DNA of 64,000 nt from Parachlamydiales bacterium (GTDB lineage: Bacteria; Chlamydiota; Chlamydiia; Chlamydiales; SM23-39): positions 15,298-79,297 of the forward strand of contig JACVQJ010000001.1 of NCBI GenBank assembly GCA_015661075.1, read 5' to 3'. Shown here in pieces: positions 4,504 through 22,297 of the stretch. Below the pieces are notes generated by a model. That model was not told the DNA's origin, ran no database searches, and worked only from the letters and a program-made list of their open reading frames with translations. The position numbers and the translations under genes were made by a program. How positions within the stretch are numbered: the stretch's first letter is position 1; each line of letters opens with the position of its first letter.

Positions 4504-5061
4504 TCAGGACCGTACGTAAGCCTTGAGGATTTTGATTGGTTCAATCGGGCGGTCGCGCTCTGTCTTGACGTTTTCCATTTTTTGAACAATGTCATAGCCC
4601 TTGACGACTTCGCCAAAAATGGTGTGCTTCATGTTCAACCACGGAGTAGGCACTGTTGTGATAAAGAACTGACTGCCGTTCGTGTTCGGCCCGCGGTTGG
4701 CCATTGCCAACAATCCCGGCCGATCGAACTTCAGCGTTGCCACGCATTCATCGGCAAACGATTTGCCCCAAATCGACTCACCGCCGGCGCCCGTTCCGGT
4801 CGGATCGCCGCCCTGAATCATGAATTGTTTGATGATGCGATGAAAAATCTGTCCGTTGTAATAATTCTTTTGAATCAGGCCAACAAAATTTTCACACGTT
4901 TTCGGAGCCAAGTCCGAAAACAGCTTCACTTCGATGGCTCCGAGATTCGTTTCGATTACGACGATGGGTTGGATTTGCTTCACAGTCTGAGTCTCCTGTG
5001 CTGGTAGGTTAAGGAAAAGCCCGAGAAAAAGGGCCACGATTGGGTAAAACATGCGCTGCAT
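4504..5061 (-). CDS. cyclophilin-type peptidyl-prolyl cis-trans isomerase with signal peptide
   Basis: 'FHRIIKQFMIQGGDPTGTGAGGESIWG' and 'MANRGPNTNGSQFFIT' cyclophilin signatures, with an N-terminal hydrophobic leader. Confidence 0.9.
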   Translation of the reverse strand: MQRMFYPIVALFLGLFLNLPAQETQTVKQIQPIVVIETNLGAIEVKLFSDLAPKTCENFVGLIQKNYYNGQIFHRIIKQFMIQGGDPTGTGAGGESIWGKSFADECVATLKFDRPGLLAMANRGPNTNGSQFFITTVPTPWLNMKHTIFGEVVKGYDIVQKMENVKTERDRPIEPIKILKAYVRS

Positions 5062-5206
5062 TTTTCACTCCTTTACTAAACTTTTGGAGCATCAATTCTA
5101 CTTAAATAATGATTGAAAGCCAAGCCTTCTTCGAAAGAGCTATTCTGCCGAGCGGGAATGGAAAGTCTGGCAATCCTGGCTTCAAAAATGTTATACGTTT
5201 GAGAGT

Positions 5207-6199
5207 ATGCTTGAAGTCGCTCTACTCATCGTCTTTCTAGGATTATTATTCGATTACACAAATGGCTTTCACGATGCGGCCAATGTCGTTTCGACGGTCA
5301 TTGCGACAAGAGTGTTGGCCCCTTTTTCAGCGATCGTGATGGCGGGTATTCTTAACTGCATCGGCGCGACCCATGTCAGCGGGGTCGCTGAAACCATCGC
5401 CACCGGTCTCGTCGACTCGGCCCAGGCAACGCAAGTAGTGGTTCTTTGCGCCGTCATCGGCGCGATCATCTGGAACTTCATCACCTGGTATTTTGGCCTG
5501 CCTAGCAGCTCATCCTATGCTCTCATCGGCGGGCTTCTCGGCGCTGCCTGGATGCATCATGGAACCCAATCCATCCTTTGGAGCGGAGTAATCTTCAAAG
5601 TCATTATCCCGATGATAGTATCTCCAATACTCGGATTCGGAATCGGCTACCTATTGATGAAGGTACTCTATCACTACGTGGGGAAAAGGCCGGATCTCAA
5701 GGAAAAAAAGATCTTTTCGCACCTGCAAATCGGATCTGCCTGTATCATAGCCTTGGCTCACGGACTCAACGATGCCCAAAAAAGCATGGGAATCATTACA
5801 CTGGGATTATTCGTATCGGGATTTCTGACCACGACGCAGATTCCGATTTGGGTTGTTTTGGCCTGCGCTCTAACCATCGGCCTGGGAACCGCCTCGGGCG
5901 GGTTTCGCATCATCCGCACCATGGGCTTTCGCATTACCCGCATCGAACCGTTCCAGGGATTCGCCGCGGAGAGCTCCGCCTCGATCGTTATTTTAGCCGC
6001 CAGCTTCATGGGAATGCCGGTCAGCTCCACACACATGATTGCCGGAAGCATCACCGGAGTCGGATCCGCCCGCAGCATGGACTCCGTGCGCTGGAACGTC
6101 CCCCGCAAGATCGTCTTCGCCCTAATCCTGACCCTTCCCGGCGCCGGCATTGTCGGAGCGTCTGCCTACATTATCGCTCGCATTGCTGGCTTGCAGTAG
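5207..6199 (+). CDS. pitA: PiT-family inorganic phosphate transporter
   Basis: 'FDYTNGFHDAANVVSTVIATR' and the second-half 'GLNDAQKSMGII' PHO4/PiT signature repeats. Polytopic membrane protein. Confidence 0.9.
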   Translation: MLEVALLIVFLGLLFDYTNGFHDAANVVSTVIATRVLAPFSAIVMAGILNCIGATHVSGVAETIATGLVDSAQATQVVVLCAVIGAIIWNFITWYFGLPSSSSYALIGGLLGAAWMHHGTQSILWSGVIFKVIIPMIVSPILGFGIGYLLMKVLYHYVGKRPDLKEKKIFSHLQIGSACIIALAHGLNDAQKSMGIITLGLFVSGFLTTTQIPIWVVLACALTIGLGTASGGFRIIRTMGFRITRIEPFQGFAAESSASIVILAASFMGMPVSSTHMIAGSITGVGSARSMDSVRWNVPRKIVFALILTLPGAGIVGASAYIIARIAGLQ

Positions 6200-6220
6200 A
6201 ACTGTTCGCTCTGTAAATTA

Positions 6221-7111
6221 TTGAGAATGCTCCTACGATTGCGACAAATTCTGATTACACTGGCATTGGTTGTTGCCGCATTGGATTTATTTTTCAGCAA
6301 TTTTCACTATTCTCCCTTTTTCCCTTGTCCGCCCTTCGATCCCCGATACGAAATAACCCATCTTCCTCCGAAAGAAAAGCTGAACAATATTCTGTCTCAA
6401 AAATTTACCTATTTGGGAAGCGGCCATCAATGCTCCGCATACCTGAGCGAAGACGGGCAATATGTCCTAAAATTGGCGCAGCACCTTCATTTTCGCTGGC
6501 CATCGGTTGCAAAGAAGCTTCCTCTGCCCCGATTCCTCAATGAGCGCCGGCAAAAAATAATGGCCAAACAACAGAGACAGCTATCTGTTTTTTTTCTCAG
6601 CGCAAAGCGTGGATTTGAAAATCTGAAAGATGAATGCGGGTTGATCTATGTGCATTTGAATCCCTCGGACGATTTACATATCTCGTTGAGAGTCCGCGAT
6701 TATTTTTTTCGCCCTTTTACCATCGATCTGGACCGCCACGTTTTTATTGTTCAAAAAAAGATGCAGCCGATCACAAACGCGCTCGAAGAATACCAGCGCA
6801 ATCGAGACACAGATCAGATTCGCTCTCTGATCGGCCATCTAGTGCAAAATATAGCTAACACCATGCGAAAAGGATTGATCGATACCGACCGGAGCCACTT
6901 CAAAAACTATGGGGTTTTAGGCAATACCGTGGCCTGTTTTGACATCGGAAATATCATGGAAGATCCTAAATTACTAAACCCAGACTATTTTGCCGCCGCA
7001 CTACAGAAAAGTTTACAAAAAACAAGGCGCTGGATTGCAAAGGACTTTCCCGATGAACTAGTCTTTTTCGAGCAAATACTGAGTGAAGAAACTCTCAACT
7101 GCAACCAATAA
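6221..7111 (+). CDS. hypothetical membrane-anchored protein with protein-kinase-like motifs
   Basis: N-terminal TM segment. 'YLGSGHQCSAY..YVLKL' resembles a G-loop plus beta3 Lys. 'LIDTDRSHFKNYG' resembles a D..N catalytic loop and 'CFDIGN' a DFG-like site. Confidence 0.45.
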   Translation: MRMLLRLRQILITLALVVAALDLFFSNFHYSPFFPCPPFDPRYEITHLPPKEKLNNILSQKFTYLGSGHQCSAYLSEDGQYVLKLAQHLHFRWPSVAKKLPLPRFLNERRQKIMAKQQRQLSVFFLSAKRGFENLKDECGLIYVHLNPSDDLHISLRVRDYFFRPFTIDLDRHVFIVQKKMQPITNALEEYQRNRDTDQIRSLIGHLVQNIANTMRKGLIDTDRSHFKNYGVLGNTVACFDIGNIMEDPKLLNPDYFAAALQKSLQKTRRWIAKDFPDELVFFEQILSEETLNCNQ

Positions 7112-7195
7112 AAATTAATTAACACTTGAAATTTATTCCAAAAACACGCACAATAAAACAAGCCAATAATAAGACCTAACAATAAAAGATAAAAA

Positions 7196-8509
7196 ATGAT
7201 TAACAAATGTACTCAACCACATTGCAGTTCTAATGTCACGCAGACATACAAACCATACGCTGGCCCATCCACAGTTAACACACCAAGTTTTCTAAACATT
7301 TTTGGTATAGTAAAAGATTGTTTTGAATTAATAAGCGCATTAATAAAAGCAAAAAAAAACAACGACACAGAAGGGAAATTTGATGCAAATATCCGCCTTG
7401 CAGGGATACCTGTAAATGCTATTTCTACGACATCGTCCATAGTAAACAATGCTTATCAGTTTTCATTGCTTTTACATGCACATATATTTAGCAATTCTTT
7501 TAAAGTTTTCTCAAAAGTTTCAATTATTCCTGGTATTGTCCTTTGTTTTATAGAAGGGATTTTCGAATCGATCGGGGCCTGGCGTAATGGCTCTTTTCTG
7601 AAATCTCTGAATAGCCAAATTATTAAAGAAATTCCCAATCTGCTCTCTCTCTCTTCCACTAAAGAAAAAGAGAAAGTTCTTTTATCGTGGGCTGTAAAAT
7701 TTGAGAAACAGATGAATAGCTCGAAAAAAAAACCTGGAATAGAACTTACTGCAGTAACTCAAATTTTGCAACTCATTAGGAGTAATCTAAGCACATTTGA
7801 TAAAGGTTATTTCCGATCATTACTAGAAAAGATGACTGAAACAGAGAAAGGAGTTTTTTTTGACATTGTGCAAAGATTTTTGGATCAAATAAAACTACAG
7901 TTAGTCCAAACCGACATCTCCTCGCTTAAAAACAGCTATTTAAGCCTTTCATCTGAACGAAAACATCAGCTCAATATCTTTGTTACACAAAAATATCCAT
8001 ATCTTTCAACGAGAGAAGCTGCGGAGAAAATCAATGAACTCAAGGATCAGGCTCGTTGCGAACAACAAGCTAAATTGGATCGCCGGACGGATCTTGCAAA
8101 AGAGGTAACAAATAATCTCCCCGAGATCGAAGAAGATTTTCTCTCATTCGACAGCACCGTACGCCAAAGCGCTCTGACGCGAGCGGAAGCTCTATTAAAA
8201 GATGTAACAATTCAAGCCGAAAAAAAATTATATCACCATATCGTTGGTATTGTTGCGATCGCGATGAGTCTTATTGGCCTGATTTTCGCCCTAACAGTTT
8301 GTCCTCAAATCATTGCCTTACTGTTCATCACTCTCGGAGCATGCACCGGTTTGGCGCGGTATTTTATGGCGAAAGGCTTATTGGGTCATAAAGGTTGGGC
8401 AATGGATTACAAAAATTGTGTGCCCGGATGGATTGGCAAGCGAATCTTCAAACCATCGCCAGCAAATACAGATTTGTCATCGCATCGTGTTACTTCTAAG
8501 ATGGGCTGA
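7196..8509 (+). CDS. hypothetical membrane protein, Inc-like bilobed hydrophobic domain
   Basis: AT-rich gene. 'IVGIVAIAMSLIGLIFALTVCPQIIALLFITLGACTGLARYF' forms two TM helices joined by a 3-residue turn near the C-terminus. The central region is coiled-coil-like. Confidence 0.5.
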   Translation: MINKCTQPHCSSNVTQTYKPYAGPSTVNTPSFLNIFGIVKDCFELISALIKAKKNNDTEGKFDANIRLAGIPVNAISTTSSIVNNAYQFSLLLHAHIFSNSFKVFSKVSIIPGIVLCFIEGIFESIGAWRNGSFLKSLNSQIIKEIPNLLSLSSTKEKEKVLLSWAVKFEKQMNSSKKKPGIELTAVTQILQLIRSNLSTFDKGYFRSLLEKMTETEKGVFFDIVQRFLDQIKLQLVQTDISSLKNSYLSLSSERKHQLNIFVTQKYPYLSTREAAEKINELKDQARCEQQAKLDRRTDLAKEVTNNLPEIEEDFLSFDSTVRQSALTRAEALLKDVTIQAEKKLYHHIVGIVAIAMSLIGLIFALTVCPQIIALLFITLGACTGLARYFMAKGLLGHKGWAMDYKNCVPGWIGKRIFKPSPANTDLSSHRVTSKMG

Positions 8510-9643
8510 ACATCCAGCCAAACGAGCCGCCAAGTCCTCTAGATCCTGTACCGCATCAGGCGGCACTCTGGTGCCTCCCATGCTCCCCGGGCCAATCCCA
8601 TGATCGTACCCATGATAATCAGAGCCGGGAGTCAGATAAACTTTTCTTCCTGTTTTTTGTTCATAGGCCACAGCTATTTTTTGAATCCGGAAATAGTCAT
8701 CTGGTGAGTTTTCCCAGCCCTGTCGATAGACCTCGAATCCGTCTAGTCCCGCTTCCAATAAATCGTTCGCAAACGATTCGAAGTCGGGATAACCTTTTCC
8801 CGAGTAGGTCAACGGGAATGTTTTGAATTTGAAGATCGTGTAGGGGTGGGCCAAAACGACCACTCCCCCAGCCTGATGAACGATCGCGATCACCGCGCAA
8901 AAAGAAGGGCCGTTGAATGGGATAGCAGCTATTGCTTCGTCGCCGATATATTTGACAAAAGCGTCGCGGTTGTCTTTAGCGTAGCCCTTGGCGACCAGAG
9001 CTTTGGCGATATCCGGGCGAGTGATCTGCCCCTGCAATTGGGCCAGGATCTCTTCCACGGGCGCTTGATCTAGCGAAAGATCTGCCAATCCCAGGCCGTC
9101 CGCCATCCGTTCCGCATTCAATTTAGGGATGAGAATATCCTCCTTGAGTTTGAGCGCCACACCGATCGATGACAACTTGTCCAGGATTTTGCGCATGCGA
9201 TCCAGGCGCTGAACGCTGGAGACTTGGAGAAGCTGGAGAAGGTCTGAATTCGAGGGATCGATGCCGAGGCTTAAAAGGTGGACAGAATCATCCTCGGCGC
9301 TAATCTCCACTCCAGGGATGATGCGCACACCCAGTTCCTGGGCTCTTTTACAGGCCCGAGCCAGGCAAGCGACCGTGTCGTGGTCTGTCAACGCATAATA
9401 ATCAAGCCCTATTTCTTGAGCGATCTCAACCATGGCCTCGGGGGTCTTGATCCCGTCCGAGTAATAGCTATGTGTATGGAAATCCAGGTTGGCTGCCTGG
9501 GAAAAAACCGCTCCAAAAAAAACAATGCAGGCCGCCAGCAAGAGATATCGACCGCCTCTCTGCTCCAGTAACTGACGCTTTTGGATCATAGAGGCTCCTG
9601 CGTTTGTTGACTCAGCTCGACTTAGAATTGGTCCCATGTTCAT
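8477..9643 (-). CDS. PHP-domain phosphoesterase (TrpH/YciV-like) with N-terminal signal/anchor
   Basis: 'LDFHTHSYYSDG...ALTDHDT' and terminal 'GSDYHG' PHP motifs, preceded by hydrophobic 'YLLLAACIVFFGAVFSQA'. Confidence 0.75.
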   Translation of the reverse strand: MNMGPILSRAESTNAGASMIQKRQLLEQRGGRYLLLAACIVFFGAVFSQAANLDFHTHSYYSDGIKTPEAMVEIAQEIGLDYYALTDHDTVACLARACKRAQELGVRIIPGVEISAEDDSVHLLSLGIDPSNSDLLQLLQVSSVQRLDRMRKILDKLSSIGVALKLKEDILIPKLNAERMADGLGLADLSLDQAPVEEILAQLQGQITRPDIAKALVAKGYAKDNRDAFVKYIGDEAIAAIPFNGPSFCAVIAIVHQAGGVVVLAHPYTIFKFKTFPLTYSGKGYPDFESFANDLLEAGLDGFEVYRQGWENSPDDYFRIQKIAVAYEQKTGRKVYLTPGSDYHGYDHGIGPGSMGGTRVPPDAVQDLEDLAARLAGCSAHLRSNTMR

Positions 9644-9773
9644 TTTTCATCAAGGGAATTCGCTTTTCTTTAAATTACTTTTTATGTAGAATGTGGACAT
9701 GTTTCACATGATTGCTCTTGTCTTTGTTTTGTTAATTGGAAATCTTAATCCTGAAGCTCCCACGTATCAATTT

Positions 9774-10151
9774 ATGGGGAAGCATTTTTTGGCGAGCTAC
9801 ATGGATTGCGACACAGACGCCTTATCCGATATCGATGGCACGATTGCTGCAATGGACTCTGCAGTTCGAGCCTCAGGCGCCAATATTCTAGCCAAAACGC
9901 CATACATCTTTCCTCCGAACGGCCTCACCATCGTGTATCTTCTCTCCGAAAGCCATGCCAGTCTCCACACCTATCCTGAACATAACGCCTGCTTTGTCGA
10001 TCTTTTCACTTGTGGAGATCATTGTTCTGCCGAAAAATTCGACAAAATTTTCCGCGCCTATCTCAAACCTAAAAAAGTCAACGCCCACATCTTCCTACGC
10101 CACAATAACATAGAAGAAGAGACTTACTCACAAGATTTTTTGCCTAATTGA
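9774..10151 (+). CDS. speH: S-adenosylmethionine decarboxylase proenzyme (pyruvoyl, class 1)
   Basis: 'LLSESHASLHTYPEHNACFVDLFTCG' self-cleavage/active-site motif. Start placed at Met28 of the listed ORF (ATG 9774), where homologues begin ('MGKHFLASYMDCD'). Confidence 0.8.
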   Translation: MGKHFLASYMDCDTDALSDIDGTIAAMDSAVRASGANILAKTPYIFPPNGLTIVYLLSESHASLHTYPEHNACFVDLFTCGDHCSAEKFDKIFRAYLKPKKVNAHIFLRHNNIEEETYSQDFLPN

Positions 10152-10230
10152 TTAATAAAAGCGGCCCTATGAATTTCAGGAGTATAATAGAGAAAACCCC
10201 AGAATCTTCTCTAAACGTTTTTCTAAAATA

Positions 10231-10911
10231 TCAAGAAGGATAGACGGATCTTGCAATGAAAAAACCAACAATTTTCAAGTTGGGAAAGTTTTTTTGTATT
10301 GTATTGCTAGCGGCTCGGAAGGTTGTCCCCTGTGTTAAAACGTCATCAAAGAGCCATATTTCTTGAATTGCTAAGCTTAGATTATTTGTACTCAGGTAAT
10401 AATTGTCTTCAAGTGCCAGCGGAACGCGGATTTTTGAAACGCGTAAAGAAGGTCTAGACTCTTTTTGCAAGAGGAGTTCAAAAATATTTCCCTGCGGAGA
10501 GAGATGTTGTAGCAATTTCAAATTTCTATCATCGTATTTTGCCGAGCTTCTAACCTCGGATGGTGGGATGGGCACTAATAATGCATTTTTCATGCGTATA
10601 TAAATTTCAGGTGTGTGAAAAATGGAGAGATGGAAAAGATTAGCTGCTTTTTGGATTGCCTCGTCTTTGTAATGCCAATCGGTAAGATCTTTACGACTAA
10701 TTTCTTTTTTGTAATTTCGAATAAGTTGATTTGTGGGGCTATGGCAAGCCAAAGCTCGAGGGGTGAATTCACCTAAATAGTAAAGCTCATCTTCGTGTCG
10801 CAAGTGGGGATAAGATAGTATTAGAAATTCGTCGATCCGTTTAAGGAATGTCGGAGAGATGCTTGCAGATTTCATTGTAGTCTTTTGCTCGAATTGCGCC
10901 TTGTTGTTCAA
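10231..10911 (-). CDS. phosphoribosyltransferase-like protein (ComF-like C-terminus without a zinc finger)
   Basis: C-terminal PRPP-binding loop 'IWLFDDVLTQGTTF'. Only one Cys in the N-terminal half. Overlaps the 3' end of the upstream DprA-like gene by 35-71 nt depending on the start (ATG 10911 or 10875). Confidence 0.6.
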   Translation of the reverse strand: MNNKAQFEQKTTMKSASISPTFLKRIDEFLILSYPHLRHEDELYYLGEFTPRALACHSPTNQLIRNYKKEISRKDLTDWHYKDEAIQKAANLFHLSIFHTPEIYIRMKNALLVPIPPSEVRSSAKYDDRNLKLLQHLSPQGNIFELLLQKESRPSLRVSKIRVPLALEDNYYLSTNNLSLAIQEIWLFDDVLTQGTTFRAASNTIQKNFPNLKIVGFFIARSVYPS

Positions 10912-11758
10912 ATTTTTTCGGCCATGACAGGGATGTGTTGAGGAAGTTGTTTTCTAATATGATCAATTTCCGTCCTTGTTGCAACGCGGCTCTTGCTTGG
11001 ACGAGGGTTCCAGACGTTTCTCCAGCTTCAACTATGATTGTTGCCTGCGTTAAGGCGGACATGGTTACGTTTCTCTCAGGAAAGAAGAAGCGATTTTGGC
11101 GATAGTCCTGTTTTGTATACTTTATGAAGGGCACTTGGCTAATTAAGAGAAAATCTTTTGCAATGATATCCTGTAAGTCCCGGTTTTCTGGTGGATAGTA
11201 CTGATTAAGAGGTGTTCCAATAACTCCAATGGTTACCCCCCCTGCCTCGATCGCGGTTCGGTGTGCTGTAGTGTCTATCCCTCTTGCTAAACCAGAGACA
11301 ATAGCAAATTTATCTGAGATAAGTTTTTTGACCAGATATTGGGTACGTTCAATCCCTTCTGGCGAAGGATTTCGTGTGCCGACTATTGCAATGCAAGGCA
11401 GATAAGCCAATTCCCAGTTCCCTTGATAATAGAGAATCTTTATTGGATAGCGTGCATCTTTTAGATGTTCAGGAAACATACCATCGCCATCGATTCTGGC
11501 GCCAAAATGAGGCAACGCTTTAAGGATTGGTAGTAAGGATTTTTTATATTCAGCAATTAATTTGGGGGCAACAAGAGTTGAAGCGAGACTTTCGGGGTGC
11601 TTAGAAAGCTGAGTTGCAATGGTACGAAATGTAGTGTTGGGGCGACTCCACAATGCTTCATAAGCAGAAATCTCTTCAAGGATGGACAGAACGGAATACT
11701 TGCTCGTGGAATTTCTCATATACTCCATAGTATTCAGATTCGGAACGATTGGTGTCAA
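10841..11758 (-). CDS. DprA/Smf-like (SLOG superfamily) Rossmann-fold protein
   Basis: 'IAIVGTRNPSPEG...VSGLARGIDTTAHRTAIEAGGVTIGVIGTPL...EAGETSGT' DprA core. No C-terminal winged-helix extension. Confidence 0.75.
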   Translation of the reverse strand: MTPIVPNLNTMEYMRNSTSKYSVLSILEEISAYEALWSRPNTTFRTIATQLSKHPESLASTLVAPKLIAEYKKSLLPILKALPHFGARIDGDGMFPEHLKDARYPIKILYYQGNWELAYLPCIAIVGTRNPSPEGIERTQYLVKKLISDKFAIVSGLARGIDTTAHRTAIEAGGVTIGVIGTPLNQYYPPENRDLQDIIAKDFLLISQVPFIKYTKQDYRQNRFFFPERNVTMSALTQATIIVEAGETSGTLVQARAALQQGRKLIILENNFLNTSLSWPKKFEQQGAIRAKDYNEICKHLSDIP

Positions 11759-11845
11759 TGAACTAATAATCGTTTTGATTTTCTGACGGTTCCGCTTTCT
11801 TTAATTGTAGTTGCCGAAAATCGCGGCGAAAGGCTCAAATGCGAG

Positions 11846-12142
11846 ATGCAGGCGATGGAGTTTCAGACGCGGAATGCGTTTAAGGCGCCGCCGAAAGAGT
11901 GGATCGAGCATCGGTTGGGTCAGTTTCGACAGACGCTGGATATGAATACCAAGGCGTCAGCGCTGGCTTTGAAAGATCTTTTAGGGACGATTGAGATGGA
12001 AGCGTTTCCTGGCGAATGTGTAGTCGATAACGGAAATTTAATTCAGAGGAAGCCATATTATCTGGCGAGTTCCAATATCGATACCCTTGCACTCCTTGAG
12101 GAGTGCAAGGGTACGAATTGGTCTCTACTTCGGAAGAGGTAG
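11846..12142 (+). pseudogene. possible remnant of a serine-recombinase C-terminal tail
   Basis: 98 codons. 'EWIEHRLGQFRQTLD..ASALALKDLLGTIEMEAF...YYLASSNIDTLALL' resembles the C-terminal tail of large recombinase-family proteins. The ORF runs 12 nt into the 3' end of tRNA-Ser and has no catalytic domain. Confidence 0.3.
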
Positions 12143-12217
12143 GATTCGAACCCACGAACCCCTCGCGGGGTTTCCTGTTTTCAAGACAGGCGCATTCGGC
12201 CACTCTGCCACTCTTCC
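12131..12217 (-). tRNA. tRNA-Ser (anticodon UGA)
   Basis: Reverse complement folds as a cloverleaf: acceptor GGAAGAG/CTCTTCC, anticodon stem CCTGT/ACAGG with loop CTTGAAA, long variable arm CCCC..GGGG, T-loop GGTTCGAATCC. No encoded CCA. Confidence 0.9.
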
Positions 12218-12220
12218 AAA

Positions 12221-13249
12221 CTATGGAAACTGAGATAAAAATCGTATATCGTTTTGAGTAAACATACGGATATCGGGAATATCATACTGCAAAATGGTTA
12301 ACCGCTCAATACCCATCCCCCACGCGTATCCACTATATTGCTCCGGATCGATGTTCCCCTTCTTCAATACATTCGGATGGACCATTCCCGCCCCGCACAC
12401 CTCCAGCCAGCCGGAATGCTTGCAGAGCCGGCATCCTTTGCCACGGCATGCCGTACAACGCACGTCCACTTCCAAACCAGGCTCGACAAAAGGGAAATAA
12501 CTCGGCCGAAAACGTGTCTGAACCTTCTCACCCAACAGCTTGCTCCAAAACTCGTCCATCGTCGCAAAAAGATCCGCAAACGATACATTGCGATCAATAT
12601 ACAGACCTTCAATCTGATGAAAAAATACGTGCGAGCGAGCAGAAATGTTTTCGTTCCTGAAAGTCCGACCCGGCGCAATGATGCGAATCGGGGGAGCAAA
12701 CTCTTCCATCACGCGGACCTGCACATTGCTCGTGTGGGTGCGGAGCAGCCATTCGGTATTCAGATAAAACGTGTCCTGCATATCGCGAGAAGGATGATCC
12801 GGCGCAAAATTCAAACCCTCGAAATTATAATAGTCTGTATCGACCTCCGGCCCCAGACGCACTGAAAAACCCATACCTGCCAGAATGTCAATCGCGCGGT
12901 CCATCATTTGCATCAGTGGATGCGAACGGCCCAAATACTGACGTCGGCCCGGTAGAGTCGGGTCAATCGCCTCGCTACTGAAACGGGCCAGCATTTCCGC
13001 ATCTTTCAAACGCGATTCAGTGAGATTGCAATGGGAAATGAGCTCCTCTTTCAGATCGTTGATCTGCTTGCCGAGCAACGGACGATCATCCGCTGAGCAA
13101 TTTTTCAATTCGATCATTAGAGCCGGTATAGGGCCCTTCTTGCCAAGGAACTTGACCTTGAGATTTTCTAGATCTTTAGAAGTAGACGCGAGTGTTAGCT
13201 CGTTCAAAAATTCAGAGCGTAACTGCTTAATTTTTTCGGATAGAGACAT
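12221..13249 (-). CDS. pheS: phenylalanine--tRNA ligase alpha subunit
   Basis: Full-length class II PheS alpha ('FRNENISARSHVFFHQIEG', 'GMGIERL'). Sits downstream of rplT as in the classical operon. Confidence 0.95.
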   Translation of the reverse strand: MSLSEKIKQLRSEFLNELTLASTSKDLENLKVKFLGKKGPIPALMIELKNCSADDRPLLGKQINDLKEELISHCNLTESRLKDAEMLARFSSEAIDPTLPGRRQYLGRSHPLMQMMDRAIDILAGMGFSVRLGPEVDTDYYNFEGLNFAPDHPSRDMQDTFYLNTEWLLRTHTSNVQVRVMEEFAPPIRIIAPGRTFRNENISARSHVFFHQIEGLYIDRNVSFADLFATMDEFWSKLLGEKVQTRFRPSYFPFVEPGLEVDVRCTACRGKGCRLCKHSGWLEVCGAGMVHPNVLKKGNIDPEQYSGYAWGMGIERLTILQYDIPDIRMFTQNDIRFLSQFP

Positions 13250-13264
13250 GCCATCGTCCGCCCA

Positions 13265-13410
13265 TTGAAGAACTCCTCCCTGAAAGGAGGAGATTCTTTA
13301 CGTAGCTTTTGGAGGCGGTGCGGCTAAAGCCGCATACCGCATCTCATAAAATAGCTTGCTTAGACCCACCCCTAAAGGGACGGGACTCTAGGCAAGCAGT
13401 GCCGTTCAAA
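13265..13410 (+). repeat. three-hairpin intergenic repeat, copy A
   Basis: TTGAAGAAC-[H1 13273-13292]-[H2 13315-13340]-[H3 13354-13397]-GTTCAAA. Related copies at 43357, 45308 and 57341. Confidence 0.75.
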
Positions 13411-13417
13411 GATCACT

Positions 13418-13444
13418 CCAGATTCGGCGATAAGCCGAATCTGG
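13418..13444 (-). terminator. hairpin immediately downstream of rplT
   Basis: ccagattcggc/gccgaatctgg forms an 11-bp stem with a 5-nt loop, 7 nt after the rplT stop. The U-tract is weak. Confidence 0.35.
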
Positions 13445-13451
13445 TGAGAAT

Positions 13452-13811
13452 TTATGCCGCCAGACCTTGCTTCGCTTTGCCGACAACGGCAGCAAACGCC
13501 TCAGGATCCCTGATAGCTAAATCAGAAAGTATCTTGCGATTAATGGAGCATCCAATCCGCTTCAATCCGTGGATGAACATGCTATAGGAAATTCCATTGA
13601 TCTTCGCCGCAACGCCAATGCGGATCGTCCACAGCCTGCGAAAATCGCGCTTGCGCTGTTTACGGTGTAAATAGTTGAATGCCAGCGCAGACATCAACGC
13701 GTCTTTACTGAGCTTCAGGTGGTTTTTGCGATCGCCATAAAACCCCTTACATCGCTTCAGGAGTTTTTTTGTTCTTCGGCGGGCCGAAACTGCATTTGTA
13801 ATTCTTACCAT
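13452..13811 (-). CDS. rplT: 50S ribosomal protein L20
   Basis: 'MVRITNAVSARRRTKKLLK..GFYG' L20 N-terminus, 119 aa. Confidence 0.95.
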   Translation of the reverse strand: MVRITNAVSARRRTKKLLKRCKGFYGDRKNHLKLSKDALMSALAFNYLHRKQRKRDFRRLWTIRIGVAAKINGISYSMFIHGLKRIGCSINRKILSDLAIRDPEAFAAVVGKAKQGLAA

Positions 13812-13813
13812 GG

Positions 13814-14008
13814 TTATACGCCCATCATGTTCTTGTACATTTTTACTTGGCCTTCATCGACGAGACGTGACTTGCCCAAGCTTCTCTTGCGCTTGGCACT
13901 CTTCTTCGTCAACATATGGCGGCGTCCGGGTCGCATTCTTTTCAGTTTGCCGGTTCCAGTGACGCGAAATCTAGCTATGACTGCCTTTCGGGTTTTCATT
14001 TTCGGCAC
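13814..14008 (-). CDS. rpmI: 50S ribosomal protein L35
   Basis: 'MPKMKTRKAVIARFRVTGTGKLKR', 64 aa. Confidence 0.95.
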   Translation of the reverse strand: MPKMKTRKAVIARFRVTGTGKLKRMRPGRRHMLTKKSAKRKRSLGKSRLVDEGQVKMYKNMMGV

Positions 14009-16933: not shown

Positions 16934-19900
16934 TTAATTGTTAAATTCCAATGGCATATGCTTTCCAACGTTAGCATCTCCAACTTCATTCGTAAATGGA
17001 TTAATATAGCTTTTACCTGATGGATTATTCCAAAGGCGAGCATCGAATCTAGAAATATTGCTTCTAGAATCTAATCCATCTCGAAAACTTCCTTCAGGTT
17101 TCATGCGAAGTCGCCATTCAAACTTTCCATCTTGATAGACACCCCATCTTTCCGGCGCGCCTTGGGGATTCGGCAACTTTTCCCATCCCTTGCTTTTCGC
17201 CCATCCTCGCAGAATCCGAATATTATTCTGCCCCGTTTCAGAGAGCCCTTTAGCCGCTTGATGGAAACGATTATTGATTTTTACAGGATTCAAATCACTA
17301 AACGCCTGTTTCGTCGATGATGCCACACGCGTAGCTGCGGAGGTTAGCGAACAGGGGGAAGGAAGCATTCCTTCAGAATACTGTAAACCACAACGATCTA
17401 GAAAATCGTTCCTGAATGCGTTTTGTCGAGTAATATTTGTGCCAAAAAATCGATCGATCCCTAAATGATCCCTCACATCATTATCGGGCCGCCATGTGGC
17501 AAACGACCGATCATTGGCTCTAATAAATCCAAGTCCCGAGTAATCGTAAATCTCATGGGTCAGTTTCGATGCGGTGTAAACCCCAAACATCGAGATTTCC
17601 CGCCCCAATGCTGGATGGGAATCAAACGAGATCGTTTGCTGCAGGCACTTCCAGTCAAACCCCGTCATGATGAGCCCATACTCATCCAAGTGCGTCAGCG
17701 GATCGTTATGGACAAAGGCATAGAGATTCATGCCATCGGTAAAGCCTGCAGGATCGGGCGTCAGCCACCGCCCCAATGACGGCATGTAGTACCTCCGGCC
17801 ATAATAAACAAGGCCAGTGGCGGCATCGCTCCTCTTGGATGAATAGCGCCAGGGGCTGAGAACCGCACCTTCAATCTTCTCTTCTCCGAACGCACTGTAG
17901 CGATAGATGGACGGCGCGCTGCGATCAAGAGGAACCAGAGCAGCGATATTTCCGGCCAGATCATGAATAAGCGCATACGCATTGCTCTGCAATTCGATTG
18001 CAACAGCCGAATTAATTTCCGCATGCGGTGTTGAGCCCAGGATGCGCAGCTCTTGAAGACGCAGCGCCTCATCGAATGAGCCGATCTCATTTTGCCCATC
18101 GTAAAGGAAATACTGCGTTTTCTGGGCGCCGTTTTGTAGGGTCGTCTTTGATAGGCAGCGATGCAGAGAATCATAAATAAAGTCCTCGCGAAGATCCGGC
18201 GAATCGATCCGGATCAGGCGATCCAGCGCATCGTAGGTATAGCGAGTATCGCCCTGCCGCACGGGATTGCCCCTTTTGTCATATTCCAAATGCGAGACGA
18301 TTTCATTGAGATCATTGACCTGATAACGCTCCTCGTCTTTTTGCAGGCGATTATTAAGCGAGTCAAACGCATAGACGTGCGCAAAGAGCCCTGTTTCATT
18401 GGTGAGCTGATAGAGCGGATCATAGGAATAAGCGCTCTCATCGCCCTGCGTTTGCATACGCAGGATATTGCCAACGGCATCCTGCTCCAGCACGTCCTGT
18501 TTGAACATCGATGAATTAATGCGCGTGGGATGGGAACAGAGATCAAACGAGTGCCGTGCAATACTGCCATCAATCAGCGTCTCTTCCAGCACATGGCCGG
18601 AAGTATCATAGGATGAAAAGCGGTGGGTATAGATGCTCTGTCCATCGAGGGTGCTGCGAGAGATGCTTTTGAGATCCAATGCATTGTACCCATACTCAAT
18701 CCGGCAATGGGCTGCGGGGATCAAACAGGCGATCCGGCGGCCCTGCTGATCAAAGGTGTTTTGCAACACATAACCGCACGGAAACGTCTCCTGCAAGATC
18801 CGCCCTTTCGCATCGACCTGCCGATTCAAACCATCGCTTTGCAGCAGGCGGCCCAGTCGATCATACGCCATTTGGTGGCGGACGGTCCCGTCCGACGAGG
18901 TTAATAAGACGAGATGACCCAATCCATCGTAGGCATACAAGATTGCCGTTCCATCCGCTTTGAGCGTTTGCGATCGCTGGCCATCCGCTTGGTAAGTATG
19001 GCGCGTTATTTTGGCATCCAGCGTGCCGTCCGCTTCGGTCAAGGCGGCCAGACGGCCGCGGCTGTCGCATTCCCAACGAGTCCGAATGTCGCGCATGGAG
19101 CCGTCGAAAGCAAAAACCGTATCGATCTGCAGAGTCGGCTGGCCATTAAGATCGAAGAATTTTTCTTCCTTGGACAGCGTTCGCTCTTTTCGCTTTTCGA
19201 TGGCTGCCAGATGATTGTGGGCGTCATACGTTGAAAGGGTCTGCAGGCTCATCGGATCGGTGTGGATCGTTTGCAAAACTCTCTGGCCGCAGGAATCGAT
19301 AAAGTGATCCTGGTATGCTGTTGTCTCGATCGCGCCCTGAGGATCGGTTTTTTGGATGAGGCGGGACATCGAGTCATATTGGAAGGACTCGCGCGCCTCT
19401 TGGCCATTGATATTTTGGATGACGGCCGAGCGATTGCCGGCCGCATCGTACTCATATCGGATGCAACGCAGCAATTCGCCAGAGACCGACTCTTTTCTCT
19501 CCTCAATGACCCGATCCAGAAGATCGTACTCAGTAATGGAGCAAAGATCTCCAGTTTGCTCTTGATGGAGCCGGCCCAGCGAATCGTAGGCATTGGATGT
19601 TTTTTCTCCATTGCACTCTTCGGCAATCTTGCGGCCCCCCGCGTCAAAAAAATACCGCGTTCGATTGCCCTCCGCATCGATATGTTGGATGAGTTTGGTG
19701 CCTCTATATTCAAACTCCTCAACAGACAGAATCGATGAAGACGAAATCGTTTTTTTGACGATCTGCTTCAGTCCATCATAGACATAGGAAGTTGTAATGC
19801 CAAGTGGATCGATATGAGAGCGAAGCGTGCCGTCCAGATTATAGATATATTCATCGCAAGCATTGTCGGGATGAACAACGAGGGTGGGTTTGCCATAGAC

Positions 19901-22297
19901 GTTATAAGAGGTCTTCGTCACATAACCGTGAGCATCCGTTTTTTGGATTTCACGCCCCGCGCCGTCATAGGCGCTCCGGTATACGGGAGAGATGAATTCC
20001 TTGCATTCGGTTGCCAGAGGCGGTAAATGCGTCTCGATGCGGCGATTCAGAGCATCTGAGACAAAAGCCGTCTCATGGCCGCGCAAATCGGTCTCGACAG
20101 TCAAACTATTGCACTTGTCATAGACCGCATGCTTTTCCCATAAAACACCGTCATTCCCCTGTTTTTTGATGTGGATGGGGCGATGAACCGAATCATAAGC
20201 GCATGTCTGTGTAATCCGTCCTGAAAATTCCTGAGCGCTGATCGGGCAGCCGCAGGCATCGTAGGTGAATGTTTCGCTCTGGCCGATAGGGTTCGTCCTT
20301 TTGATCAGGCGGCCTTTGCCGTCATACGCCATCTCGATGCTGTATCGCAGTGCGTTTTGAGCGTCGTAAACATCTTGCCGAGCAATTTTTGCACCTGTCG
20401 TATAGGCGAGAACAGTCTTTTTTAGCCTTTCTTCCTGGCCATTCTTGCAAAACGATTCCTCGATGATGTGCGGCAGACCGATATAGGGCGCCTGTGCGAC
20501 AGGCGTGATGCGCCGGATCGTTTGCGAATCGCCATCGTCGGACACTTCGCGGATCAACACGTGATCGGCGTCATATTCGAACGTCTTTCTAACCTTAAGT
20601 ACATCACCATCATATGTTGCCTGCGAAATCGGAAGATCTGTTCTGGGCAAATAATCGATAAGGATCCGGCGGCCCGAGTCATCGGATTCTTCCAGCAGAA
20701 GGTTGGGCTCGGATGAAGAATAGCGAAAGCGCTTGCAATAGACCTCAGTTCCGTTGTCGATAGGAATCCCATTTGCGCCGAGAACAGGAGATGGTCCCGC
20801 GCCTGAAAGGTTGCCGTAGAGCCTCTTTTCGATGACATTGCCGCGCACATCGTACATGTAGCGAACAGATGAAATTACCGTTCCGTCGCCATCAATCAAA
20901 CTTTTGCAGATCAGATTGGCCTGATCTGCTCCAGAGCCCCAACAATAGCGCTCTTTATTCAATAACGGGCCATCTTTGGAAAATCGATCGATCGTTTGCA
21001 GGCGCAGATCGTCGCCCCATGAATAGACGGTTCGATTGAGATCGGCATCGAAGACTTCAACGAATCCATGCTGATTATCTTTGCGCTTTTCTTCCGTAGG
21101 GTCGATTCGATGCGAGCTGTAGATGAGTGAATAGATGGGACAAAGAGCGCCGTCGGCGCAGACCGGAGCCGATAGAGTTTTAACCTTGCCTCGATTCCCG
21201 TCCCAAACGAGCTTATCCTCATATTTAAGAACCATTCTCATTTGACCCGCCTCGTACACCGGCTCTAAATGGGATACAACCTCATAATGATCGTTCATTT
21301 TTACGGTTCGATTGGCGACCGTATGAACGGTTTTATCATAATAGTCGGCCTGCAATCGGGGATGGCAGGGATCTGTTATGGAAAAAAGACGGGTAAACTT
21401 TGAGCTTGGGATTTTCAGCGGGGCATAGTCGATCGTAAATTCTCGGTAATTCAGGCTCGTATCAGGTGCTTGCGAAGAGCTGACGGCGCTCACCTCGCCC
21501 AATGTGACTCCTTTTTGACCGATCACATAGCCATATCGAACCACTTGGCCATCGCTGCCCTTGACAGTGAATGTTTTGTTTTTCAGCTTTGGATCATCGT
21601 AGACGATGTCGGCCCAGGCAAAGACCTTGCTCATCGATGCATTCATGCTGCGGATCTTCGTCAGCATCATGCGGTTATGCTGCATTTCATGATAATCATA
21701 GCGGATCTGATGGCCATTCGGGAGATTTTCACAGATCAGCCGATACCCATTATCGTCGCTCGGTGTTTTCTTATACTCGCGAACAGTTCCATCGGCCGCA
21801 TGGACGATCAGATGCCTGAATTTCTCTTCTTCGATCAGAATGTAATTATTTTTAAAATTCGTACGGCTCGAGATCGCTCCCATCGCCGTGTTTGAAAAGC
21901 CCTCTTTGAGGTTTTTCGGCGTGCATCGAATGTATTTGACTCCATCGATTTTGATTGTATCCACTTTTTCGTATTTAATCTGACCGCCGTTGGACTCCTG
22001 AACGACCCATGTATGTTTCGATCGCTCGTATGCAAACACAAATGAGCCAAACGACCAAGATCCGTTATGATAGGTTCGGTAAAAATGAATGGGCTCGGCA
22101 CCCTGGATCGTGAGGTCTTCTTCGTGGGCGAGTAATTCGCCGGTGATTGCGTTGACAGCACCACCAATGATGACGGAAGGATCGTTAGCGAGGGTCACTA
22201 CCGATAAATCTTCATTGGCCGATAAAGTGCCGACGGAAAGAAAAAACAGGATCAAATATTTATTCATAAATCGTTTCAGCTTAAGAAAAAACGACAA
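16934..22297 (-). CDS. RHS/YD-repeat polymorphic toxin with signal peptide and variable C-terminal domain
   Basis: Leader 'MNKYLILFFLSVGTLSA', dozens of YD repeats ('YxYDxxGNxI' variants), and the RHS core end 'GRRYYMPSLGRWLTPDPAGFTDGMNLYAFVHNDPLTHLDEYGL'. A 245-aa tail follows (about 16937-17671). Confidence 0.9.
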   Translation of the reverse strand: MSFFLKLKRFMNKYLILFFLSVGTLSANEDLSVVTLANDPSVIIGGAVNAITGELLAHEEDLTIQGAEPIHFYRTYHNGSWSFGSFVFAYERSKHTWVVQESNGGQIKYEKVDTIKIDGVKYIRCTPKNLKEGFSNTAMGAISSRTNFKNNYILIEEEKFRHLIVHAADGTVREYKKTPSDDNGYRLICENLPNGHQIRYDYHEMQHNRMMLTKIRSMNASMSKVFAWADIVYDDPKLKNKTFTVKGSDGQVVRYGYVIGQKGVTLGEVSAVSSSQAPDTSLNYREFTIDYAPLKIPSSKFTRLFSITDPCHPRLQADYYDKTVHTVANRTVKMNDHYEVVSHLEPVYEAGQMRMVLKYEDKLVWDGNRGKVKTLSAPVCADGALCPIYSLIYSSHRIDPTEEKRKDNQHGFVEVFDADLNRTVYSWGDDLRLQTIDRFSKDGPLLNKERYCWGSGADQANLICKSLIDGDGTVISSVRYMYDVRGNVIEKRLYGNLSGAGPSPVLGANGIPIDNGTEVYCKRFRYSSSEPNLLLEESDDSGRRILIDYLPRTDLPISQATYDGDVLKVRKTFEYDADHVLIREVSDDGDSQTIRRITPVAQAPYIGLPHIIEESFCKNGQEERLKKTVLAYTTGAKIARQDVYDAQNALRYSIEMAYDGKGRLIKRTNPIGQSETFTYDACGCPISAQEFSGRITQTCAYDSVHRPIHIKKQGNDGVLWEKHAVYDKCNSLTVETDLRGHETAFVSDALNRRIETHLPPLATECKEFISPVYRSAYDGAGREIQKTDAHGYVTKTSYNVYGKPTLVVHPDNACDEYIYNLDGTLRSHIDPLGITTSYVYDGLKQIVKKTISSSSILSVEEFEYRGTKLIQHIDAEGNRTRYFFDAGGRKIAEECNGEKTSNAYDSLGRLHQEQTGDLCSITEYDLLDRVIEERKESVSGELLRCIRYEYDAAGNRSAVIQNINGQEARESFQYDSMSRLIQKTDPQGAIETTAYQDHFIDSCGQRVLQTIHTDPMSLQTLSTYDAHNHLAAIEKRKERTLSKEEKFFDLNGQPTLQIDTVFAFDGSMRDIRTRWECDSRGRLAALTEADGTLDAKITRHTYQADGQRSQTLKADGTAILYAYDGLGHLVLLTSSDGTVRHQMAYDRLGRLLQSDGLNRQVDAKGRILQETFPCGYVLQNTFDQQGRRIACLIPAAHCRIEYGYNALDLKSISRSTLDGQSIYTHRFSSYDTSGHVLEETLIDGSIARHSFDLCSHPTRINSSMFKQDVLEQDAVGNILRMQTQGDESAYSYDPLYQLTNETGLFAHVYAFDSLNNRLQKDEERYQVNDLNEIVSHLEYDKRGNPVRQGDTRYTYDALDRLIRIDSPDLREDFIYDSLHRCLSKTTLQNGAQKTQYFLYDGQNEIGSFDEALRLQELRILGSTPHAEINSAVAIELQSNAYALIHDLAGNIAALVPLDRSAPSIYRYSAFGEEKIEGAVLSPWRYSSKRSDAATGLVYYGRRYYMPSLGRWLTPDPAGFTDGMNLYAFVHNDPLTHLDEYGLIMTGFDWKCLQQTISFDSHPALGREISMFGVYTASKLTHEIYDYSGLGFIRANDRSFATWRPDNDVRDHLGIDRFFGTNITRQNAFRNDFLDRCGLQYSEGMLPSPCSLTSAATRVASSTKQAFSDLNPVKINNRFHQAAKGLSETGQNNIRILRGWAKSKGWEKLPNPQGAPERWGVYQDGKFEWRLRMKPEGSFRDGLDSRSNISRFDARLWNNPSGKSYINPFTNEVGDANVGKHMPLEFNN

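Follow-up and report, generated by a model that had tools for sequence, protein, structure and literature searches.

A probable ShosTA-family toxin-antitoxin cassette with a phosphoribosyltransferase-only toxin at a tRNA-Ser hotspot of an uncultured chlamydia

An overlapping shosA-shosT pair in a chlamydial genome

Computational analyses were performed to characterize a pair of overlapping genes carried by an uncultured member of the Chlamydiota, whose PheS found its best match, at 82%, in a set of 185,579 species representatives. The pair lies within a stretch of 64,000 nucleotides from contig JACVQJ010000001.1 (assembly GCA_015661075.1), referred to here as the window, and is composed of shosA, coding for a DprA-like protein, and shosT, coding for a protein of phosphoribosyltransferase (PRTase) fold. 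The original prediction, made from the sequence alone, had related these genes to the anti-phage pair DprA-PPRT, and profile searches bore this out. ShosA matched the PADLOC ShosA model PDLC03961 (302 bits, E=8.5e-91; residues 11-302 covering positions 5-294 of the 303 in the profile), ShosT matched the PADLOC ShosT model PDLC03962 (99 bits, E=7.8e-29; residues 26-224 covering positions 6-213 of the 237 in the profile), and the two genes are adjacent on the minus strand, so that all three features that PADLOC asks of a ShosTA system were present. ShosTA is the current name of DprA-PPRT, which a separate study confirmed to defend against phages. The earlier statement that this system had no known mechanism has since been overtaken, as the structures and the mechanism of E. 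coli ShosTA were published in 2025-26 (PMC11961720, PMC12961424).

The genes had been read as overlapping open reading frames (ORFs) of 305 and 226 aa, the second with a phosphoribosyl pyrophosphate (PRPP) loop; the overlap and the loop stood, while the lengths were revised to 295 and 214 aa by ATG starts. The TTG start of the 305-aa ORF (10841..11758, minus strand) is itself the beginning of a TTGACA –35 hexamer, and the true shosA start is ATG 11728, giving the 295 aa called in public assemblies, or ATG 11719. An exact public match was found for the 295-aa ShosA, whose public calls start at ATG 11728, and not for the 305-aa ORF. Similarly, for the 226-aa ORF the most likely start is ATG 10875 (214 aa, as in public assemblies), and the overlap with shosA is therefore 35 nt rather than 71. 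An overlap of 35-38 nt is kept in homologous loci.

The DprA-like protein ShosA

It was verified that ShosA preserves the DprA Rossmann core, since its residues 91-289 matched the Pfam family DNA_processg_A (E=2.9e-55). No C-terminal winged helix or extra C-terminal domain was found by Pfam, in the AlphaFold2 (AF2) model (predicted local distance difference test score, pLDDT, 92.6) or by structure comparison, and both observations agree with what had been read from the sequence. The arginines of the GTR, (F)PERN and VQAR motifs aligned with R139, R234 and R261 of E. coli ShosA (HMMER against 8zva, with a 5-residue tag offset allowed), the residues by which this dimeric protein, formed by a SAM domain and a DprA-fold, binds single-stranded DNA (ssDNA) (PMC12961424). 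Moreover, R119 and R219 were invariant in A2.

The fold of the model matched S. pneumoniae DprA (3uqz, 2.9e-21) and E. coli ShosA (8zva, 3.5e-18, TMq 0.71), and the sequence scored 108 bits against the former and 78 bits against the latter. S. pneumoniae DprA is thus the nearest relative in sequence and fold, which speaks for a divergent ComFC-DprA competence pair processing incoming ssDNA for RecA. However, the scores against the competence models fell below the curated NCBIfam cut-offs, with 154.5 bits for dprA TIGR00732 (cut-off 191.15) and 124 bits for PRK10736 (cut-off 495). No second DprA was found in the 64-kb window.

Other defense models gave lower scores: another PADLOC model, PDLC02997, reached just 1.9e-22, and PsyrA reached 8.4e-26. 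The PsyrTA (RqlHI) system shares with the window pair a DprA-like antitoxin and, by published description, a PRTase-domain toxin; however, the PsyrA match was far weaker than the ShosA match, and the window toxin matched no PsyrT model.

The PRTase-fold protein ShosT

The AF2 model of ShosT (pLDDT 93.7) presented one PRTase-fold domain, and no Pfam match was obtained. The PRPP loop 'LFDDVLTQGTTF' is present, and its residues D177 and D178, in 'LFDDVLTQGTT', were invariant in all 55 family members. These aspartates are equivalent, by motif and fold and without residue-level structural alignment, to D331/D332 of E. coli ShosT, through which PRPP is bound and which are essential to toxicity (PMC11961720, PMC12961424). 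The six family-invariant residues, including D177, D178, K70 and R117, are all present in the window protein. The E. coli toxin has 424 aa, with a pyrophosphatase-like domain at its N-terminus followed by the PRTase domain at its C-terminus (PMC11961720, PMC12961424); no N-terminal pyrophosphatase-like domain is present in the single-domain, 214-aa ShosT of the window.

Matches of the model to PDB folds at E<=1e-3 were solely H. pylori ComF (7p0h, 6.9e-7) and E. coli ShosT (8zvc/8zvd/8zvb, 9e-6 to 7.5e-5), and metabolic PRTases scored 6e-3 or worse. The first position of H. pylori ComF again favors a competence pair; on the other side, ShosT reached only 20.4 bits against comF TIGR00201, which has a cut-off of 233.55, and, as originally noted, a single Cys was read in its sequence and the four-Cys zinc finger of ComFC is missing.

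The window pair shares with the ShosTA systems of E. coli APEC O1 and KTE181 (8zva, 8zvb, 8zvc, 8zvd, 9vzo) a DprA-like antitoxin with a SAM-like N-domain, a Rossmann fold and the ssDNA-binding arginines, a PRTase-fold toxin with an Asp-Asp PRPP loop, the carriage by mobile elements and the PADLOC system name; it differs from them in matching other PADLOC models (PDLC03961/03962).

Promoter and base composition

A promoter-like element precedes shosA (Table 1). The same motif, TTGACAcCAAT...GAATcAGAATAcT, was also found upstream of shosA at unrelated positions in other L-numbered loci, which are the related chlamydial contig regions compared with the window (L002, L003, L086, L088, L133 and L135). 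When the ends shared by these cassettes were compared, the promoter alone was conserved upstream and nothing was conserved downstream.

The pair had also been considered more AT-rich than its flanks. This held relative to core genes, with a GC content at third codon positions (GC3) of 0.35 for ShosT and 0.40 for ShosA versus 0.54-0.66, and less so relative to speH, whose value (0.47) lies only slightly higher. Five hosts were examined for this property, and in each of them the GC3 of the cassette was approximately 10-25 points under that of its neighbors.

Distribution of the cassette within Chlamydiota

The cassette was surveyed in ten chlamydial genomes, represented by the window and nine further loci (L002, L003, L004, L086, L088, L133, L134, L135 and L136). 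It occupied nine different loci in these ten genomes, the nine further loci corresponding to eight new contexts, which are given in Table 1. Moreover, about 70 ShosA clusters with 61-82% identity ranked above the first non-chlamydial names, and all the named ones were chlamydial.

The two genes presented distinct fates in these lineages. ShosA was intact at 9/9 of the other loci, and ShosT, assessable at eight of them, was intact in three (L003, L086 and L133). It was frameshifted in L002 and L134, both of which are long-read assemblies, so that these frameshifts may be sequencing errors, and it was deleted or fragmented beside an intact ShosA in L004, L135 and L136, with just the last 16 codons kept in L004. 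Losing the toxin while retaining the antitoxin is how a toxin-antitoxin pair would be expected to decay.

The short ShosT outside chlamydiae

When 1.84 billion representatives were searched with the short-ShosT profile, 954 clusters were recovered at E<=1e-30; of the 150 top-ranked ones, almost all measured 200-230 aa. The short ShosT is an established subtype and not a truncation. In fact, 43 viral contigs from IMG/VR carry it, with ShosA directly upstream in 41, and it was also found in phages of Burkholderia, Ralstonia and Pseudomonas and in plasmids of E. coli, Legionella and Rhizobium. In such cassettes of temperate phages and plasmids, exemplified by those of Burkholderia phage Mana and of the E. 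coli and Legionella plasmids, a ShosT of about 210-225 aa is placed directly downstream of ShosA, adjacent or overlapping, as in the window, with 24-41% (ShosT) and 41-57% (ShosA) identity to the window proteins. Their hosts are mainly Proteobacteria and they lie on recognizable prophages and plasmids, whereas the window copy is part of a chlamydial clade, with ShosA identities of 61% or more, that is found in the chromosome, either flanked by core genes or at a tRNA hotspot.

The tRNA-Ser hotspot and the recombinase remnant

The pair had been proposed to be cargo of a decayed integrative element at the 3′ end of a tRNA gene, and this proposal gained support from a serine recombinase stump beside tRNA-Ser(UGA), whose intact counterparts lie at the same tRNA-Ser in relatives. 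The coordinates of the features of the locus and the contexts of the homologous cassettes are given in Table 1.

Table 1. Features of the window around the shosA-shosT pair and contexts of homologous cassettes in other chlamydial loci
Feature	Position	Strand	Remarks
shosA	10841..11728	minus	DprA-like gene, predicted antitoxin, 295 aa; alternative start ATG 11719; maximal ORF from TTG 11758
shosT	10231..10875	minus	PRTase-only gene, predicted toxin, 214 aa; overlaps shosA by 35 nt
Promoter-like element of the cassette	11729..11758	minus	TTGACA, 18 nt, AATACT; top sigma-70-type match in the region, 10/12 positions
Large serine recombinase 3′ remnant	11777..12142	plus	Residues 434-555 of ~555; catalytic, recombinase and zinc-ribbon domains deleted
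Palindrome, perfect 15+2+15	12082..12113		Within the recombinase tail; separated by 17 nt from the tRNA-Ser 3′ end
tRNA-Ser(UGA)	12130..12218	minus	ARAGORN; 2 nt past the pheS stop codon; integration hotspot
Variable region	6200..12129		~5.9 kb between PHO4 and tRNA-Ser: 294-aa ORF, 437-aa AT-rich ORF, PHP-domain gene, speH, shosT, shosA, recombinase stump
speH (S-adenosylmethionine decarboxylase)	9693..10151	plus	Pfam AdoMet_dc E=2e-27; convergent neighbor of shosT; link to the cassette uncertain
L002 cassette context			After speH, before tRNA-Thr
L003 cassette context			Between SpoU and rhodanese gene
L086 cassette context			Between dapF and sctQ
L088 cassette context			After malQ
L133 cassette context			After HTH-Fic pair (HTH_3 + Fic, 5811-6967, directly upstream of intact ShosTA)
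L134 cassette context			After amino-acid permease gene
L135 cassette context			After yqeY
L136 cassette context			After Bro-N gene
L004 cassette context			tRNA-Ser hotspot, as in the window

The spacer between tRNA-Ser and the pheS stop codon is so short (window positions 12219-12220) that both genes are probably co-transcribed. The pheS-tRNA-Ser arrangement was also found in the relatives scanned, and the order IF3-L35-L20-pheS-tRNA-Ser was conserved in related loci, with ShosTA placed after it in the window alone. In L010, another gene was inserted between pheS and tRNA-Ser.

An ORF of 98 codons (11846..12142, plus strand) had been recognized as the C-terminal tail of a recombinase overlapping the tRNA gene by 12 nt. 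The tail proved real, the overlap with the tRNA-Ser 3′ end being 13 nt with the stop codon included, and in-frame similarity extended back to 11777. By tblastn, the remnant presented 62% identity to the intact L070 protein and 94% over 98 aa to that of L006. The intact L070 homolog (555 aa) carries the Resolvase, Recombinase and Zn_ribbon_recom domains, all three of which are missing from the window copy, a gene fragment. An intact recombinase was found in L041 as well as in L070, whereas in L006 the reading frame stays open up to the end of its contig, CAISYW010000120.1. The gene is antisense to tRNA-Ser in these three loci, and its 3′ end overlaps that of the tRNA in L006 and L070, as in the window. 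The remnant presented 94% protein and 82.7% DNA identity to L006, compared with 82% and 73% for pheS; this closer relationship argues for a shared mobile element. Recombinase fragments were also found at tRNA-Ser in several other relatives, and no recombinase traces were found beside the cassette in L002, L003, L086 and L088, indicating that the association with the recombinase is specific to the tRNA-Ser hotspot.

The palindrome within the recombinase tail is shared by L006 and L082 and, in part, by L010, and may serve as a recombination site or else as a tRNA terminator. A direct repeat of the tRNA 3′ end, which would mark the far att site and had been suggested as a check, did not survive in the window: none was found in 5000-14000, nor window-wide with up to 3 mismatches. 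Partial second copies of the tRNA-Ser 3′ end (GGTAGGATTCGAA-like) were observed in L041, L018, L061 and L067, placed 40-60 nt past tRNA-Ser after a short hairpin, and these look like scars of earlier integrations.

The variable DNA proved larger than the islet of about 2 kb first proposed. A homolog of PHO4 (5207..6199, plus strand) directly follows tRNA-Ser in L013 and L020, so that the variable stretch of the window measures about 5.9 kb; in other relatives, this position is occupied by 2-6 kb of unrelated DNA. A survey of the genes downstream of pheS was performed in 80 related genomes, in line with the presence/absence comparison that had been suggested, and ShosTA was absent from the tRNA-Ser locus in 79 of them. 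The exception was L067, which belongs to the same genome as L004 and carries a lone ShosA. Apart from this lone shosA and the recombinase fragments, none of the genes of the window variable region recurred downstream of pheS in the 80 relatives.

Other integrations at this hotspot carried different cargo. In L004, the PADLOC candidate system PDC-M02 (B, 2.4e-81; A, 4.4e-40, DUF4365) was found at 6272-7859, between tRNA-Ser and the orphan shosA. The cargo of L082 (12276-14363) included a DUF3800 protein and an AbiEi antitoxin (1.8e-82), and that of L018 (11875-15615) a 1246-aa protein with five DUF4379 zinc fingers, a helicase and a methyltransferase. Intact serine-recombinase elements, each with an XRE-type regulator, were found at tRNA-Ser in L041 (11437-16954) and L070 (11139-14061), the former also carrying an 833-aa HSP70-like protein with no PADLOC match.

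Neighboring genes in the window

With regard to speH, a 58%-identical homolog (L002 7505-7954) adjoins the L002 cassette in the opposite relative orientation, the order being speH-> <-shosT <-shosA in the window and speH-> shosA-> shosT-> in L002. Synteny between the L002 neighborhood and the window was considered and rejected, as speH alone is shared. None of the 80 related loci had a speH less than about 10 kb away from pheS, and PADLOC gave no matches for speH, the 437-aa ORF or the PHP-domain gene.

The 437-aa ORF (7196-8509, plus strand) presented a GC3 of 0.33 and no significant Pfam match and was absent from the relatives. It contains a double hydrophobic stretch near its C-terminus, Inc-like by eye, and at its 3′ end it shares 33 nt with the convergent PHP-domain gene (8477-9643). 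Farther away, an ORF of 1787 aa (16934-22297, minus strand) had no homolog in the 80 related pheS loci, both of its flanking sides being syntenic with L006.

Proposed function and alternative explanations

The family assignment, the architecture, the conserved catalytic and DNA-binding residues, the promoter, the hotspot and the recombinase stump are direct observations of this work. Taken together with the published system, they point to a type IV toxin-antitoxin and abortive-infection module of the ShosTA family, with the short, PRTase-only subtype of ShosT, a reading to which we assign a probability of roughly 0.8.

In E. coli, ShosTA has been described as a type IV toxin-antitoxin (PMC11961720). 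The expression of ShosT perturbs purine metabolism and damages DNA, and ShosA interacts with RecA and neutralizes the toxin without binding to it; the system is triggered by T7 Gp0.7, with the unstable C-terminus of ShosA implicated in the triggering (PMC11961720, PMC12961424). Both E. coli ShosTA systems tested protected against phages (PMC11961720).

By homology to these systems, an enzymatic activity, a toxicity, a trigger and possibly an anti-phage role can be proposed for the organism studied here. shosA and then shosT would be transcribed from the promoter of the cassette, with their 35-nt overlap. ShosT would bind PRPP by its loop (D177 and D178), and a PRPP-using reaction would disturb nucleotide metabolism, which may in turn cause replication stress and DNA damage. 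ShosA, as a putative dimer, would bind ssDNA, work with RecA and neutralize this damage without toxin binding. Should a phage silence host expression or fill the cell with ssDNA, the protection by ShosA might then fail, and the pre-made toxin would stop the infected cell. As to the element itself, a deletion took away approximately the first 433 recombinase codons, so that the stump now lies some 20 nt from the shosA promoter, and the element is thereby immobilized.

Several observations weigh against the assignment to a ShosTA abortive-infection module. The region missing from the window ShosT corresponds to the pyrophosphatase-like domain of the E. coli toxin (residues 1-164 of 424), and the window ShosA is about 33 aa shorter than that of E. 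coli and is not known to have a disordered, destabilizing C-terminal tail; consequently, the trigger logic may differ from that of E. coli. No sequence match between ShosT and E. coli ShosT or any PDB entry was obtained by phmmer or with the 55-member profile, and the proposed link of this protein to the characterized toxin runs through its modeled fold (TMq ~0.5) and the PADLOC label. Two near-invariant histidines, found in 51 of the 55 family members, are replaced in the window (H145R and H185T), so that the activity of the toxin is not assured. We found no experimental test of the short ShosT subtype. No phage of this host is known, and the chlamydial phages described in the literature consulted are Chlamydiamicrovirus. 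In addition, the identity of ShosA to its window counterpart (65-68%) was similar to that of PheS (65-66%) in the two genomes with both values known, a result also compatible with a gene that has long been resident and plays a cellular role. Given the wide occurrence of the cassette in environmental chlamydiae and this parallel divergence, it may have resided in the phylum for a long time while changing loci, instead of having been imported recently.

Among the alternatives, the pair could be a purely selfish addiction module that stabilizes itself or its islet, with no anti-phage role in an intracellular host. The classification of ShosTA as a type IV toxin-antitoxin (PMC11961720), the frequent loss of the toxin with the antitoxin kept, the position inside a decayed mobile element, the intracellular lifestyle and the surveys that report almost no defense systems in Chlamydiae are all consistent with this explanation. 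It was considered unlikely, however, in view of the other defense cargo (AbiEi and PDC-M02) found at the same hotspot beside homologous cassettes, of the frequency of the subtype on prophages, as is usual for defense systems, and of the phage protection afforded by both E. coli systems tested.

It was also conceived that ShosA had been co-opted in environmental chlamydiae as the cell's own DprA-type RecA mediator, acting in recombination or DNA uptake, with the toxin as a dispensable passenger. C. trachomatis, the one chlamydia for which this was examined in the literature consulted, has no recognizable DprA (PMC6686042, PMC8936141), and this absence, together with the intact ShosA at all nine other loci versus a ShosT lost or broken in up to five of eight and with a ShosA about as conserved as PheS, is what motivates this hypothesis. 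The ComF-like fold of ShosT and the lack of DprA in C. trachomatis leave a small chance of such a cellular role for ShosA. If true, the cassette would represent a route by which a defense gene becomes a housekeeping gene.

The possibility that the system is an idle, decaying relic, in which the antitoxin was kept and the toxin was already inactivated by point substitutions, seems rather improbable. The H145R and H185T replacements, the degradation or loss of the toxin in several sister lineages, the recombinase stump and the absence of a surviving distal att copy are in its favor. Nevertheless, the shosT ORF is full length and retains all six invariant residues, and neither the promoter nor the translational overlap is disrupted. 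Moreover, the same two substitutions occur in the nearest homolog, P0122, and are thus inherited variants rather than fresh damage. H185T brings back the Thr of the canonical 'TGxT' loop of PRTases. The idea that both substitutions form a coupled change marking an altered chemistry was examined and discarded, as they were not strictly linked across sequences.

Finally, the ComFC-DprA competence pair, the alternative offered with the original prediction, shares the same two folds and a place in ssDNA/RecA transactions, and C. trachomatis takes up DNA despite lacking a recognizable DprA (PMC6686042); it was nevertheless rejected as very improbable, since the scores of both competence hidden Markov models (HMMs) fell under cut-off while the defense models matched, the zinc finger is missing, the PRTase partner was repeatedly lost, the distribution is mobile and patchy, with absence from the tRNA-Ser locus in nearly all relatives and a different locus in almost every carrier genome, the same subtype occurs on phages and plasmids, and the pair follows a toxin/antitoxin logic.

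Implications

The ShosTA system was already known, and the present finding does not change the understanding of ShosTA itself. Its interest lies in its presence and spread in a phylum described as defense-poor, the tRNA-Ser hotspot with varied cargo, the asymmetric decay of the toxin and the minimal ShosT. The PRTase-only ShosT represents a natural minimal version of the toxin and could help to find its acceptor substrate.

In the context of the phylum, large surveys found no or almost no known anti-phage systems in Chlamydiae (bioRxiv 10.1101/2022.05.11.491447; PMC9090908). The present data indicate that at least one catalogued defense system is common in uncultured environmental chlamydiae and moves between loci. 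Considering this frequency of ShosTA and the varied defense cargo at tRNA-Ser, the textbook picture of chlamydiae as poor in defense systems may reflect a sampling dominated by the pathogenic family.

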